Positions 20,267 through 35,349 of a stretch of 64,000 nucleotides of DNA are shown here, piece by piece (within the stretch, counting starts at the first letter, position 1; each line of letters starts with the position of its first letter). The notes beneath the pieces were generated by a model. The model was given only the letters and a program-made list of their open reading frames with translations. It was not told the DNA's origin and did no database searches. Origin of the DNA: Chrysomallon squamiferum. Taxonomy: Eukaryota > Animalia > Mollusca. The stretch lies in contig CM022670.1 in NCBI GenBank assembly GCA_012295275.1, forward strand, positions 4,898,001 through 4,962,000, read 5' to 3'. The translations under genes and the position numbers were made by a program.

Positions 20267-23200
20267 GTTGTTATACTTACAAGTATACAATATATCGAAT
20301 CACATTTTAGCTTTCTTTCCCAATCTTGACTATTATGTTTTACTCACAAGACCTTAAAAACCATATATCTTGTCTAATGCTGTTGTTAACATGCTTTTGT
20401 AAACTTTCTGATATTTGTTTCTTTCTTTTATACATCTTAATATATTAATATATTTTTTATTTCATTTTAAAAGTCTTTTGATAGTAAGTGTTATAAATGT
20501 ATATCATAATAAGTCTTGAATGCCTGTATTTATATGTGACTGTTGTTTAGGTGTTATGTTCTGTTTTGATTCTGATATTTGTTATGGTTGTTGTTTCCAT
20601 GTTCCACGATACCTAGATAAATAGATACAGAAAACATGACTTCTAGCTAATTTAAAACCAAATGTTATGGTCAGGTTGTTTAGTATTAACACTGATAGTT
20701 AATTAGGGGTTAACCATAACCCTACATCATTTGTCTGCTGCTATAACTAATATATGTTTATAAATAAATTCTGTCACTGTATTTATTGCATTCGAAATAA
20801 TATTTAAATATTTCCGTGTTTTACAAAAAGAAATGGTACATAACTAAAACTAATTTAATCATTAACAAAGAACATACTTATGAAGAGTGTTGTTTGCCCT
20901 TGCTGAAAAATTAATTTTTTAAATGTTTTGTAATTTTGTTTATGTAATGTTTTAATATTTTCCATAGTTATTACAATTTAATTTTATATTAATGCATTCA
21001 TTTTAATGTTAGTGAACAACTAGAATAAACTACCCTGTTTGTATGTACAGTATATATCTATACATCGATATGAATTTATTCTTCAAATGTTTTTAGTGAA
21101 TTGAATACTTGCAAGGGATTTATTTTTAAATGGTAAACTTTGGCATTTGCTCTAAAGTCAATTATTTTGTGAATCAATCTTCTTGTTTCTGCATAGATAA
21201 TTGTAAATATATTTCAGTGAATACACAGGAAATCATGGTATCCATAAATGTTATTTTTAAGAAATTGTCTTAGATTTTGTGTACAGTTAATTTGTCAACT
21301 AAATACAATTTTTATAGTATCATGTGAAATATTATTTATTTTCCAATACATTAATGAAATAAAATCTAGAAATTATACTTCTACTTGTGTGAAAAACAGA
21401 GAAATGTATGCTTTTTATCAAGTTTCTTTAATACTTTTCCCTATAGACCATTAATTAAATATGTATATCGGTTGTCGTTTTTTACCGTAATTATTTGGTC
21501 ATTAGTTTAATAATCCAAGAAATGCATTAAAACATAACTGATTATGTGGAAGTATTATGCATGTTTCAAAAGAAACAGAATATATGTCATAATAGTCTTT
21601 TTAAAATTAATGATAACATGAAAGACAATTATTTATAATATAAAAACTTTGTTAATAATAAATTAAAATAAAGGATTTTACTTAGAAGAATAATCATGCT
21701 TCAATAAACCCAAATTTGGTATGTGTTGTGATAATTTGTAAAATCATTAAGATTTAATGACTTGAGAGTATTAATATGAAAGTTTATTTTCAATGTATTT
21801 AATATGGGATATTTTTTCTTTCAAATCAGTATTATTTTTGTTTGTATTGTGTTTAATATATATATTTTTGGGGAAAGAGTGGAACTTTAATAACAATTGA
21901 TACTCTTCTCTTTTTGTAAAATTATTATTTTTATTTCTTTGAACTTTGCATTATGTAAATGTCATCAATTCTTAATAAAGCCTTATTAAATTTTATATAT
22001 ATGACATCATAAGTGTAAAAAAATGGGGTTATTATTTTGTAAATACTCTTTTCTTTGATCTCAAATAATTATAATCTGCCTTGGTAATTTTACATCTTTA
22101 TAGATCTCATTCCCACCTAAGTGAAAACCAAAAAAACCACATTCATAAAAAAATGTTCAGGGAAACATTTATAATGAATTTCCACATTAAACATAATTGC
22201 AGTTTTCGTAGCTAATGAAAATGGACACACCATTGTGTGGGTTTAATATTAATAACAAAAAAAATCCTTTGCAGGTTATTTTCTATCCTTGGATAGGTAG
22301 ATGATGAAGAAAATGATCTAAATTGCAGAAATATTAACAAAAATATTTCATCAAGATATCAAAAGAAAATTTGGTTACTGAATTACCAGTAGTCAAAAAA
22401 AAGAAAGTTTTAAAAGATGTTGAAAACAAGATGCAGCTGACTTGCTTATATTATTAAAATACATGCATTTATGTACTTTATTGTTTATTAATTTAAGATT
22501 AACTAATTTGAGATTATTAATAATTATCTAAAACTTAAAGCCTTTTGCATTTACATTAAACATTTTGGTTCATAAACTTTTGTTTGTCCAAGATGTACAT
22601 GAGCATATTTCTTTATTATCAATGCAGGTCTAATTAGAATCATTGAAAAAATTATTTATAATTAATGGTAATTAGAAATCCATATTGTTTTGGTTTGTAT
22701 AGATTTTTTATTTTTGTTGTATTTGTTTTGTTTGCATTAATTGTAAGCATTTTTTCTTACATTTTGTTTAGTGACTATCAGTGTAAATAAGATTTTAAAA
22801 AAGATGTCATTGGGATTTTCATGTACATTATATCCTGTTTTAAATCAAATTATTATTTTTCTTTTCCACTCCATTAATTATTTTTCACTTTCATGCCGGT
22901 AATGGGAACATGTATATATTAAACTGAAAATAATTTAACAAATTCATGTTACACTGCAGACCAGCAATCTGTGTGCTTTCTTAAATTTTAAGTGATGGTC
23001 AAGGGATTTCTACATGAAGTAATAGCTGTCAGTCATTTGTGTACATGTAGTTAGTTTATGCCAGCCATGACCTTTTGTATTTAATTTTATCTCTTCCCAA
23101 ATCTATCACTTTATGCATTCTTTGTTATATATCTCAAACTTTTTAATTTTCATTTCAGCTGTTACTATCACTTGCAATGAATTTCATTTTATGCATAATC

Positions 23201-24164
23201 TATAATTAAACAGTAAAACAAAACAAAAACTGAATTGTTGTTTAGTCTTTGATTTTCATTATTCAAAAATTCTGTGTATGGTCTTGTTCACATCTGAGAG
23301 AATTTGAAATGATTTCCCAGGTTTTTATTCTTTTCTGAAATTGTCGTACAATTTTAAAAAGAATCCAAAAAATAGTTAGCTTTTTAATTTATTATAATTT
23401 TATTTTTTTTTTTATTATTATTATTATTATATTTTTAAATGTTAAAAATTTCTATCCAAACTGTTCAGCAGTAGAATGATGCTCCGATGAGCAGTGGGTT
23501 TCTGGATCAATGCTGCTCTTCAGATGCTTACCAATCACTGCTGTATAAAAGTAATGTTATACATTTTTTTGGTAAGATAGAACTTATAAAAAAATCTCCT
23601 GCTGGTGATCCTAAGGTGTGAGGGAAGCAAGTTTCTAATAAAATTCCAAATGAAACATAACAGTTGAGTACTATTTTACAGAATTTCAGTATCATAGATC
23701 ACCAATGATCACAAGATTAATTTGTCAATTTATTGGCGATATTTGCTAACAGCAGGAGAGACAATAAAATGCTTTGATTACATTTAATGTTATGATTAGC
23801 AATTAAAGTGTATTTTATATTTCAGAAAATACATCAGGTATTTCATTATTTGTAATTTTTTTTTAATTTTTCAAAATATTAGTAACTCCAAACTTATTCA
23901 GACAAACAAAACTTCACAACTAAAAGTGAGAGACAAACTAAGTAAATTTACTGGTTAACAATTTCATTCTCAATAACAATTCCATATATTTGTTATTCAA
24001 ACCTACTTTTAAATTGATTGTAAATATTTTTAAACAAAAATTCATTGCAAACACGACAAAATGAGGCAGTTTTTTCACACTTCCCTAAACTGCTGTATAT
24101 ATATATGTATATATATATATATACCTCTAAAACATACACCCACTGTCATATATACAAGTCTGTT

Positions 24165-24476
24165 CTATCTCTGTTTTGCTAACTGTTGAAGGACTTCATT
24201 TGACATTGCCATTTTACACTGTTCATATGTAAGTCCTGCAGCACCTTTTTCTGAACTCCATGGATATTTTTGTCTGTAGTAATCGGTGTTAAGTTTCTGA
24301 AGACATTCGTACATCCTATCGCATTCCACTGGGTCCACTTTTGAGGTTTCTCCTTGCTTGAAAGCTTCTGCAACCTTCTTTCTGATAACACTTCCCAAAT
24401 CTCGTCCCACCTTACTGTCATCTAATGGCCATTGTTCACACAATTTAAGGAATTTTTTATATCTGGCTGCCGTCAT
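24165..24476 (-). CDS. UQCC2: Ubiquinol-cytochrome c reductase complex assembly factor 2, 103 aa, single coding exon
   Basis: MTAARYKKFLKLCEQWPLDDSKVGRDLG…CDRMYECLQKL…YYRQKYP matches the UQCC2 N-terminal signature (human MAASRYRRFLKLCEEWPVD…GRDLG). Exon acceptor ttttcag ends at 24493. Confidence 0.92.
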   Translation of the reverse strand: MTAARYKKFLKLCEQWPLDDSKVGRDLGSVIRKKVAEAFKQGETSKVDPVECDRMYECLQKLNTDYYRQKYPWSSEKGAAGLTYEQCKMAMSNEVLQQLAKQR

Positions 24477-24723
24477 TCTCTTGGTTTTAACTCTGAAAAT
24501 AAAAATATAATAAAAACAAAAAACAAATATGAACACTAACCTATTTTTCATTCTTTTAATAAAACCAAAGTTCTAATGTTTAAAAAAATAAAAGTAAGTT
24601 GATGTCAAAGATTCAGTTTAAGATGTCAGATTTTTTTATTTTAACAGTTAGAAAATAAAAATTAAATAGTGTACATTTAATGCTATTTTATGTTACTTTT
24701 TATTATAAAGTGAATGAGACTGG

Positions 24724-24742
24724 AATAATAATAATAATAATA

Positions 24743-24785
<43 letters not shown>

Positions 24786-24838
24786 GTAATAGTAATAGTA
24801 ATAGTAATAGTAATAGTAATTATAGTAATAATAATAAT
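24724..24838. repeat. (AAT)n/(AGTAAT)n microsatellite
   Basis: Directly visible. Confidence 0.9.
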
Positions 24839-25294
24839 TAAAAAATCCAAAGGCATTTGGTCTAGAAAATTGATTTTAAGTCCTTATATTAATAAAGTTA
24901 AAAGTTGCAGATGCATTTTTAATATCTCTTTTGTTAAGTTAAACCTATATTTTTGAATGTTAACCTTATTCCTTTTGCTATCAGACTGTATTAGTTTGAC
25001 CAGCTAATTATTTTTTCATTTTTAAAAAAAGATTAAAATACACACATATTTGTCAGTCTGTTTTTTTTATTTATAATATTTTATAAATAGCAGCAACCTG
25101 TACTAATCACAAAATGCTGGTGCAAAGTATTTTGTAAACAGCAGGATGCCAACCATTACATTACACATAAATAACATATCAATATCGCATTTTAATCATT
25201 TTCCCATAGAACCATTTAGTGTTATTTAACATTTCACTGGTTAAATACACATGCACACCTTCATCATCTCAGTGTAAACAGTCAACCTATTATA

Positions 25295-26268
25295 CAGGGT
25301 GGCCCAGATGTAACCGAATCTGAATTGTTATGAAAAGTTACAGTTAAATGAAACAAATTTTATTTCATATAGTTACAGCAAATGTTCAAAATGCAAACCA
25401 TTATTTGTAATACAGTGATGACATCATTCAATGGTTGATTCAGTTACTTTTTTGCACATTTCCGGAGTAATATCTTTCCATGTGATTATGATGCTGTTTT
25501 AGATCATTGAGAGTTTGGTTTATCGGTGAACACCTTATTCTTGAGTACTCCCCAGAGAAAGAAGTCTAGAGGAGTGAGGTCTGGAGACCTTGCAGGCCAT
25601 TCCACGGCACCACGGCGGCCTATCCATCTCCATTAAGAGCCTGGAGTTCCCGTGGACGATATGGGTGCAAGCCAGTATCCGACATGATGCGTTGTAAAGA
25701 CGATCATGATATGCCGAGCTCTGCAGAAGCACGTCTCTGGGATTTGCAAGGGCTGTCGACGTATGATGATGCTATTAATTCCTGGTTGGCAATTGTCCTC
25801 ATTGTTCTTGGTGCACCAGGTTTAAACGCGTCGGCGACGTTGCCAGTTCGTTTGAATTTTTGTGCCAATTTGTAGATTGACGATTTTGATGGAGGTGGTG
25901 TATCAAACGATTCATTCCAATGATCAATAACATTTTTATAACTCCTCTCCGACAAATAATAACTTTTAATAGCATGAATACGTTCTTCCAATTTTTAAGT
26001 GTGTCGTGTGTTGGCCATGTCTGTTAAATGAAAGAGGGCGACAAAATTGATAAAACGAAGACTATCAAAGAAGAAGGTTTCCGTCCTTTCTTAAATAGGC
26101 TTTGCAACACTTTCAGTGGTGATGACGAAACCAGTTAACACAGCCATGCAAGTGAAGTCTCTTTACCAATTCTCCCTGATATCGATCACTTTGGTATTTC
26201 GTGAAGCAGACTTGAAATCAGTGATCATCAATTGAGCTTTCAGGTTCGGTTACATCTGGGCCACCCTG
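25295..26268 (-). mobile_element. Internally deleted Tc1/mariner-superfamily transposon (rosa/maT-like) with a pseudogenised transposase
   Basis: 30-bp TIRs CAGGGTGGCCCAGATGTAACCGAA(T/C)CTGAA with 1 mismatch. TA TSDs at 25293-94 and 26269-70. HTH-region ORF 25704-25991 (…KFKRTGNVAD…SQRRASAELGIS) and C-terminal WPARSPDLTPLDFFLWG. Most of the DDD core is missing and stops are present. Confidence 0.93.
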
Positions 26269-26548
26269 TATTCTACACAATTGTATTATAAATAAATACA
26301 ATTACTGCAAAAAGTTAAAGATGCACATTCTGTCAGTGTCATTTAATACTAAATTATAAATAAAACATTTAGAGTTGGTTACTGATAAAAATAAGTGAAC
26401 GACGTTGTCAAATTTATTTTAAGTCTATTAAAAGTAAGTGTGACAGATAATGAAAACTAAAGGCTCAAACCTAATGAACATTATTTGAATTTGTTTTTTA
26501 AAATAATCATTATAATGATTCTAACAAAAATTAAAAATATGTTCCTAC

Positions 26549-26807
26549 ACATTGAATAATCCGAGGAATCATTTGCTGCTCTGGAAGCACCTAGTCTATT
26601 GACTACATAATTCGTCGTATCAATGAAACGTTCAACGCAATTGGTTAAGCAATGTTCTGTCCTTGAATCCAGTTTTTGTCCAGGTTTGTCCATACAAAGT
26701 TCCCAACACCGATCGGTCAAACCATGAACAAGCTGTTGAAATCGTTGTTTTTGAGTTTCTGCTTCAATAAATCGCTGCATATGTGGATCCTGTAACGCTT
26801 CTGACAT
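26549..26807 (-). CDS. TIMM8A: Small Tim chaperone Tim8, 86 aa; stop probably completed by splicing to 24492 (the unspliced ORF runs to 26481)
   Basis: [59 protein letters not shown] is a twin CX3C Tim8 sequence. The ORF tail after DYSM is AT-rich and intron-like. Confidence 0.92.
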
Positions 26808-26849
26808 TATTACAATTTTTAAAAAATATTAATATATTACCTTTGAAAA

Positions 26850-27997
26850 GATTTGGATGGATTGCAGCAGAAACTACACCGATTTGGCAGTTAGATTTCG
26901 TTATTAGGTTTAGTATACATATCCGTACAAAATCGAAGAAAACCAGTCAAAATTGGGTAATATTTCTTCGTTGTGTACATTTCACCTTTGTAAAGCATCG
27001 CAGAAGTTAACTATCATCAAAACGGATAAAAATTATTTTAATTAACGCTAATGGAATATTCATCATATTGTATTGATGTTGCTGCCAGTGATTGTGTACC
27101 CAAAATGGAAGCGGGCCACATTTATTAATATTAATACTTATTTGTTTATTTCTTAATTACTTTATTTTGGAGAAATTTATTAAGATGCCGTATATATTCT
27201 ATGATTTTTTTTTTTTTTTATACGGGTAAGAGAAACGGGAGAGAGGAGTTTATTTCCCGAGTTGACCTCATGATGAACTTCAGTTAATTCATTTTCAAAT
27301 GAATTAATCCATATTACTTAGTTTGCTGTACCTTGGGATGGAAAGGATAATCTACTCATAACAAATTCACTATCTCTATATCTGTTTGTTTGTTTGTTTA
27401 TTTGTTTTTATTTTTATTTATTTTACTATTAAAATAATGAAAAACTGTTATGTATTTTAATTTTAAGCAGATAATAAGCAAAAATGGTTAAAAAAGAATA
27501 GAAAAATATGGAAAATAGTTATTTGAAAATAAATTAATCAGTAGTGAGGATGTAGTTATTATTTTCTATATTAATATTTGATTTTACGTATTTATTTCCT
27601 TATTAATTTATTTATTTTTGTTTATTATTTATTTATTACTTAATAGACACTATCTTCTTTTTAGAATTAATTATTTATTAGTTTTAATCAAATTTTATTT
27701 ATTTCTTTATTTTATTTTATTATTATTATTTTTTTTAAATCTTTTTTCAAATATGTTTCACATAAAAACACATAACTTTCATAAATTGAAATGGCTCTTC
27801 TGAACCGACCCGCCAACATCTGAATTATGCTTCAGTAGACTGGTGCTCTTCCAAGAAATATAACAACTAAATAAAGAATAATTATATATCTGAAGAATGA
27901 AATTTATTACTATTTTTAAGTTTAGCTCGACAAAAAGAGAGGGTTGAGTTTCGCGCAAACTGGGATTTCCGGCGGACGTTTAAATACCGAGTAAACA
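26850..27997. promoter_or_regulatory. Divergent promoter region between Tim8/UQCC2 (-) and RAP1 (+)
   Basis: CpG-containing patches near both starts; E2F-like TTTCGCGC at 27949-27956 and ETS-like TTCCGG at about 27967. Confidence 0.5.

Positions 27998-35349
<7,352 letters not shown>

Follow-up and report, generated by a model that had tools for sequence, protein, structure and literature searches.

Tim8A and UQCC2 on one snail transcript

The window examined here, a stretch of 64,000 nucleotides (nt) from the mollusc Chrysomallon squamiferum (assembly GCA_012295275.1, contig CM022670.1, positions 4,898,001 to 4,962,000), carries on its reverse strand two genes for small mitochondrial proteins, the import chaperone Tim8A and, behind it, the complex III assembly factor UQCC2. 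The Tim8A frame matches Pfam PF02953 above the cut-off (E 2.4e-24) and contains a Tim10/DDP domain, closest to Tim8, with the twin CX3C motif at C34/C38 and C53/C57; a TIM8 chain is the best relative of its protein among solved structures. UQCC2 matches PF20180 over the full frame (E 7.5e-21; 74.9 bits against a curated cut-off of 27.9), while a search by sequence for a solved-structure relative of UQCC2 and a scan of prokaryote genomes each returned no match. The nearest named relatives of both proteins are molluscan, and XP_041357805.1 from Gigantopelta aegis, also of 103 residues, shares 84% identity with the UQCC2 of the window. The UQCC2 frame is uninterrupted here, whereas many of its homologues cease matching at profile position 46-54, the pattern expected of an intron.

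The RNA evidence comes from four runs of a single study (X1 to X4) and from a further run of unrecorded kind (X5), all as assembled Logan contigs, described in their source as simplified 31-mer graphs (10.1101/2024.07.30.605881). Positions 24870-27400 were aligned with X1 to X4 and 21500-24700 with X1, X3, X4 and X5, leaving 24701-24869 uncovered. The junction from 26549 to 24492, which uses the donor site here named B, is real and occurs in three of the four RNA runs (X1, X2 and X3), in each of which the contig sequence beyond 26549 equals 24492 to 24463 and is unique within the window. A 700-nt contig of X1 reads 26850-26549 in its letters 1 to 302 and continues, from letter 303 on, at 24492 and through the complete UQCC2 frame; a 705-nt contig of X2, aligned on the Tim8 side only, has the same loose end at 26549. 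From X5, a 4494-nt contig passes at 24492 from the exon straight into the intron, unspliced. The junction, a stop codon made by the splice, a 14-nt spacer and two intact frames are thereby observed. A single RNA that starts near 26870 and contains the donor B junction carries both frames, barring another start or end inside it. On contigs rather than long reads, this is a spliced mRNA spanning two separate open reading frames (ORFs), which is how FlyBase understands a dicistronic mRNA.

An earlier, sequence-only reading of the locus had proposed one transcription unit with a two-ORF mRNA formed by donor B and had named this junction among three to seek in RNA; the junction contigs of X1, X2 and X3, together with the X1 contig holding both frames, bear this out. 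The outcome that it regarded as fatal, in which all Tim8 mRNAs end unspliced near an AATAAA and UQCC2 starts on its own between 24500 and 26400, is not what the runs contain, as X1 and X2 each have a sole aligned Tim8 contig, and this one is spliced to UQCC2. That hexamer, placed at about 26415, does exist and starts at 26418, a small correction; a second poly(A) hexamer follows at 26347. The acceptor at 24493, three donors (A, B and C), the spacer and the predicted products all compute as that reading had described. Donor B joined to the acceptor (24493/24492) ends an 86-residue Tim8 in ATG-TAG, followed by the 14-nt spacer and the 103-residue UQCC2. Donor C, at 26551 (5/9 consensus positions), gives an open Tim8-UQCC2 fusion frame of 194 residues. 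Donor A lies 33 nt upstream of the Tim8 ATG with no AG in between, and splicing there would make UQCC2 the first ORF and remove all seven upstream AUGs. The further claim that the spliced Tim8 stops where homology ends holds in part: 86 residues is a typical family size, whereas family homology ends near residue 72. Table 1 collects the features.

Table 1. Features of the Tim8A-UQCC2 transcription unit, in window coordinates
Feature	Position	Strand	Details
Exon 1: 5' leader and entire Tim8A to first base of stop codon	26549..26870	-	RNA contigs
Candidate donor A, AAG|GTAATA	26835..26843	-	7/9 consensus positions, sequence match; use would give UQCC2-only mRNA
Tim8A coding sequence, 86 residues	26549..26807	-	ATG at 26807; stop is T (26549) plus AG (24492-24491); Pfam PF02953
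Donor B, TGT|GTAGGA	26543..26551	-	4/9 consensus positions; donor found in RNA; read-through residues C-R-N across site kept in relative
Unspliced continuation past donor B	26418..26548	-	108-residue read-through Tim8 (stop at 26481), AATAAA at 26418; one X3 contig runs through
Intron, 2056 nt, GT..AG	24493..26548	-	RNA junction
Decayed DNA transposon in intron, 980 nt	25292..26271	.	33-nt terminal inverted repeats
T-rich tract and acceptor AG	24493..24520	-	preceding AG at 24537
Exon 2 start	24477..24492	-	AG completing Tim8 stop, then 14-nt spacer
UQCC2 coding sequence, 103 residues, single exon	24165..24476	-	ATG at 24476; Pfam PF20180
3' untranslated region under RNA contigs	23929..24164	-	further contigs extend to 23443; poly(A) site unmapped

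Contigs of exon 1 start at 26850, 26867 and 26870, positions that mark contig ends, the start site itself being unmapped. Within the intron, X1 to X3 have low-depth contigs that may be pre-mRNA or DNA. The transposon located there is presumably Tc1/mariner-like, a label taken from its WPARSPDL motif, Pfam giving no match. All four RNA runs have contigs of a related copy, with 25-30 differences from the window, 168 fewer bases and other flanks; these differences and flanks indicate that the RNA comes from another copy. Allelic differences occur in the Tim8 leader (26819-26825, in X2 and X3), and X3 has a 9-nt deletion near the intron start (26462-26511); there are none in donor A or donor B.

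Linkage of the two genes probably extends to a close relative. The closest match to Tim8 (P0006, 77%) and the closest match to UQCC2 (P0003, 86%) each lie on an ENA contig of 1,322,462 bases, most simply one and the same contig. Neither the first 86 residues of P0006 nor the proteins of the window matched any record exactly. P0006, of 129 residues, is a read-through call that agrees with the read-through of the window at all three residues C87-R88-N89, the codons over donor B, and at only 2/14 residues before them and 0/19 after. Since these three residues are kept while their flanks diverge, donor B is probably kept as well, and comparison of the sequences suggests that the relative retains both the Tim8A-UQCC2 linkage and this donor. 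The ATG-TAG start-stop at the junction was considered as a mechanism and dropped, because conservation is lacking: P0006 has I at residue 86. In all three named, more distant species found to have both genes (Batillaria, Babylonia and Tubulanus), Tim8 and UQCC2 lie on different contigs, so that the pair looks lineage-restricted.

A possible splice choice and the likely translation of the second frame

From the perspective of gene expression, the account regarded here as probable on balance is that the splice from 26549 to 24492 joins Tim8A to UQCC2, creates the Tim8 stop and yields an mRNA with two ORFs, each of them likely translated into its protein. Transcription would begin near 26870, and UQCC2 would have no promoter of its own. 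Ribosomes would translate Tim8A from the first AUG and UQCC2 less often, either by restart after the Tim8 stop or by slippage past the seven AUGs that precede its own in the donor B mRNA (the Tim8 AUG, with A at -3, and six more within the Tim8 coding sequence). Junction-dependent nonsense-mediated decay is an established pathway, which this mRNA would be expected to escape because the Tim8 stop forms at the last exon junction, with no junction behind it.

Several points weigh against this account. For reinitiation, 86 codons are long. The seven AUGs ahead of the UQCC2 AUG and the A at -3 of the Tim8 AUG depart from the leaky-scanning pattern as given in PMC11291117. All RNA runs belong to one study and are seen as contigs, and a contig over two genes is not proof of one molecule. 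A contig of X4 starts exactly at 24492, as a fork between T-ending and G-ending upstream sequence would leave, which means that a second route into the UQCC2 exon may exist. Finally, X3 has, in addition to the junction, an unspliced Tim8 contig (26578-26239) that crosses both poly(A) hexamers.

These last two observations would also suit two separate genes with occasional read-through splicing, in which Tim8 ends near the AATAAA at 26418 and UQCC2 is driven by an intronic promoter that the transposon may have supplied: the unspliced contig and the hexamers at 26418 and 26347 would mark the Tim8 end, and the fork at the acceptor the other route. However, the unspliced contig crosses the two hexamers and reaches the end of the transposon, the only Tim8 contig aligned in X1 and X2 is the spliced form, and the read-through tail is not conserved (none of 19 residues identical; 108 against 129 residues) while the residues over donor B are, which together make separate genes improbable. 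A functional 194-residue Tim8-UQCC2 fusion protein formed through donor C, a form that the sequence-only reading had raised, would find its frame open and a donor with 5/9 consensus positions; nevertheless, all three junction contigs end at 26549 and none of the four runs has a joint or loose end at 26551. A Tim10/DDP domain occurs in 0/38 extended UQCC2 proteins (chosen among the top 150 of 340 matches), and a search for longer proteins, a weak test, found no fusion among 26 candidates. Moreover, Tim8 is trapped in the intermembrane space whereas UQCC2 acts on the matrix side of the inner membrane, and the fusion is considered very unlikely indeed. An assembly chimera, which data consisting of contigs only might invite, is less credible still, given a base-exact GT-AG junction that is identical in three runs, is absent from the X5 contig and makes a stop at the family-typical Tim8 size.

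A splice switch, placed at clearly less than an even chance, is the most probable of the alternatives. According to it, a short first exon spliced from 26841 to 24492 produces a UQCC2-only mRNA that supplies most of the UQCC2, the donor B mRNA serving mainly for Tim8A. Donor A is the top consensus match within 26900-26400 (7/9 positions, against 4/9 for donor B), a similar site has a chance of about 2% in 60 nt of the window, and its use takes out the seven upstream AUGs. The start of the X4 contig at 24492 is compatible with a fork between donors B and A, although it is equally explained by the unspliced intron, which is likewise G-ending. Among 26 other loci, 3 have a 7/9 site no more than 70 nt from the Tim8 ATG, and for none of these was a partner gene found. 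At 26841 no run out of the four shows a joint or a loose end, but the contigs could not reveal donor A: they begin only 10, 27 and 30 nt before it, and in a 31-mer assembly its path would run for 40-60 nt into a dead end. The Logan contig method is said to clip dead-end tips. Upstream of 24492 the sequence among the loose ends listed is Tim8 (20 more are unlisted); a short spliced leader, as in a trans-spliced operon, would be clipped in the same way as donor A. In Drosophila, CG12788 follows Tim9b, and one of its splice variants is monocistronic, with a disrupted 5' coding sequence (PMC4528330, File S1). That donor A is truly used is a tentative proposal, more doubtful than not.

Two patterns of RNA cover were set aside. 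Contig depth in X3 (68.3 over the UQCC2 exon, 20.7 over the Tim8 exon) and the lack of Tim8 cover in X4 would be consistent with a form that carries UQCC2 only. However, the depth of contigs is no measure by which to rank the parts of a gene, and a gap proves nothing; the same applies to positions 24496-24700, which lack RNA cover and were in part skipped as repeat.

Partners of Tim8A and the surroundings of the locus

A scan of metagenome contigs provided 51 Tim8A loci for comparison. UQCC2 was found in 0/51 of them (two profiles; window control E 1.4e-52), with just 7 of the 35 loci lacking PEX3 having more than 2.4 kb downstream. In 16/51 loci, a PEX3 frame follows Tim8A on the same strand, its ATG 39-206 nt past the Tim8 stop (L002, L003, L004, L010, L021, L024, L029, L031, L032, L034, L041, L042, L044, L045, L046 and L048; for example, L031:4185-5780). 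Pfam identified 14 of these PEX3 frames among the 80 frames scanned, and tblastn all 16. They form 10 sequence clusters at 80% identity. An arthropod is the best named Tim8A match at 16 loci, and 15 of those belong to this set, together with L048. The introns present in the similar loci L042 and L046 are missing from L002, L003, L004 and L010, which may be spliced transcripts carrying both frames. Judged by eye, without statistics, AUG counts in the Tim8 coding sequence show no visible difference between PEX3-linked and other loci. This Tim8A-PEX3 tandem constitutes the strongest new lead, and full-text literature searches, which reach few subscription journals, found no description of either a Tim8A-UQCC2 or a Tim8A-PEX3 pairing.

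Other genes stand behind Tim8A in isolated cases. A TMEM208 (SND2) frame lies on the same strand 260 nt past the Tim8 stop, with five AUGs between (L049:14-951), and a Bcl-2 family frame, also on the same strand, 619 nt past it (L043:85-1621). As single cases with AUGs in the gap, both may be mere neighbours. Conserved exons behind Tim8A in five lophotrochozoan-like loci were rejected as a partner because in L028 and L036 their open frames are on the other strand. There they belong to a conserved multi-exon gene convergent with Tim8A (L028:3298-5909 and L036:7631-9084), putatively the tRNA-His guanylyltransferase THG1.

Taken together, Tim8A seems to have served repeatedly as the first cistron, with partners that change, and the capture of UQCC2 would be one case of its habit of carrying a second gene. 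Regarding origin, a one-exon UQCC2 copy likely landed behind Tim8A in the snail lineage and was captured by the splice. The intronless second ORF and the unlinked genes of Batillaria, Babylonia and Tubulanus are as expected of a bicistron born by retroposition, which is a candidate origin of the UQCC2 copy; the PEX3 frame of L042, with two GT-AG introns, counts against it. The boldest version holds that Tim8A is a landing pad across animals (for UQCC2 in these snails, PEX3 in arthropods and perhaps TMEM208 and a Bcl-2 family gene elsewhere) and that the snail sets the ratio of import chaperone to complex III assembly factor by competition between two 5' splice sites, of which one completes the Tim8 stop. 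This combination is rather unlikely.

In the surroundings of the pair, the first coding exon of a homologue of the telomere protein RAP1 (TERF2IP) lies on the plus strand at 27998-28114 (E 9.9e-06 to PDB 7oz0), head to head with Tim8A at a distance of about 1.1 kb. At 27205-27350, on the minus strand, a short stretch that is not AT-rich finishes in consecutive A letters and so resembles the tail of a retroposed element, with no match in Rfam; an Rfam search of 21000-30000 likewise gave no match. Beyond the 3' end of UQCC2, RNA contigs cover 21500-23216, perhaps the 3' region of a neighbour.

Related arrangements and significance

The kind of arrangement is known from Drosophila Tim9b-CG12788 and from human bicistrons, and Tim8A-UQCC2 is a new member of it. 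In PMC2276209, Drosophila Tim9b is the upstream ORF and Tim10 the main ORF of two-ORF transcripts, the family tending to share transcripts. PMC4528330 gives 159 dicistronic pairs, and its File S1 includes the splice-made monocistronic form of the Tim9b partner CG12788; the 12 supplementary files of it that were searched contain no match to Tim8, Tim13, Pex3 or UQCC. Both the fly and the snail loci place a small Tim of the Tim10/DDP family on one transcript with an unrelated ORF. In Tim9b-CG12788 the small Tim is likewise upstream, and the monocistronic variant of the partner corresponds to the switch proposed for the snail. The snail differs in family member (Tim8A), partner and phylum, and also in that an intron between the ORFs creates the first stop and the spacer measures 14 nt, against 162 and 52 nt in the fly. 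The sequence-only reading named sloth1/sloth2 as a precedent; it missed both the small-Tim case of Tim9b-CG12788 and the Tim8A-PEX3 tandem.

Among human genes, the 'gene symbiosis' bicistrons STREMI-SLC35A4, PYURF-PIGY and MIURF-MIEF1, for which an origin by retroposition and read-through has been proposed (PMC13303939), share with the snail a small mitochondrial protein in first place and an unrelated one-exon ORF in second. They were filtered by ribosome data, whereas translation of snail UQCC2 is predicted from the transcript; the terms TIMM, Tim8 and UQCC are absent from the main text of PMC13303939. Drosophila sloth1/sloth2 (PMC9681215) resembles the snail pair in its two-ORF mRNA, its very short spacer and its tie to complex III assembly. 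However, the sloth proteins have been proposed to be paralogues, and the weak context of the first start allows leaky scanning, while Tim8A is not related to UQCC2 and its AUG has A at -3. In green algae, bicistrons for which translation occurs by leaky scanning (PMC11291117) also have two ORFs per mRNA and a short 5' leader, which in the snail is about 60 nt by contig ends; there, however, the start of ORF1 is weak and few AUGs stand ahead of ORF2, against seven in the snail.

The locus provides a molluscan example, supported by transcripts, of an mRNA with frames for two proteins, in which the splice that links the two frames also ends the first protein. Annotation that ignores this splice reads Tim8 into the intron, the 129-residue P0006 being such a call, and a knock-down of one gene, or expression counts for it, would act on both. 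The Tim8A-PEX3 tandem, present in 10 distinct arthropod-like clusters, would place mitochondrial import and the building of peroxisome membranes on a single message. Tim8A with its varied partners offers a natural series for studying how downstream ORFs get translated and why small Tim genes attract them.

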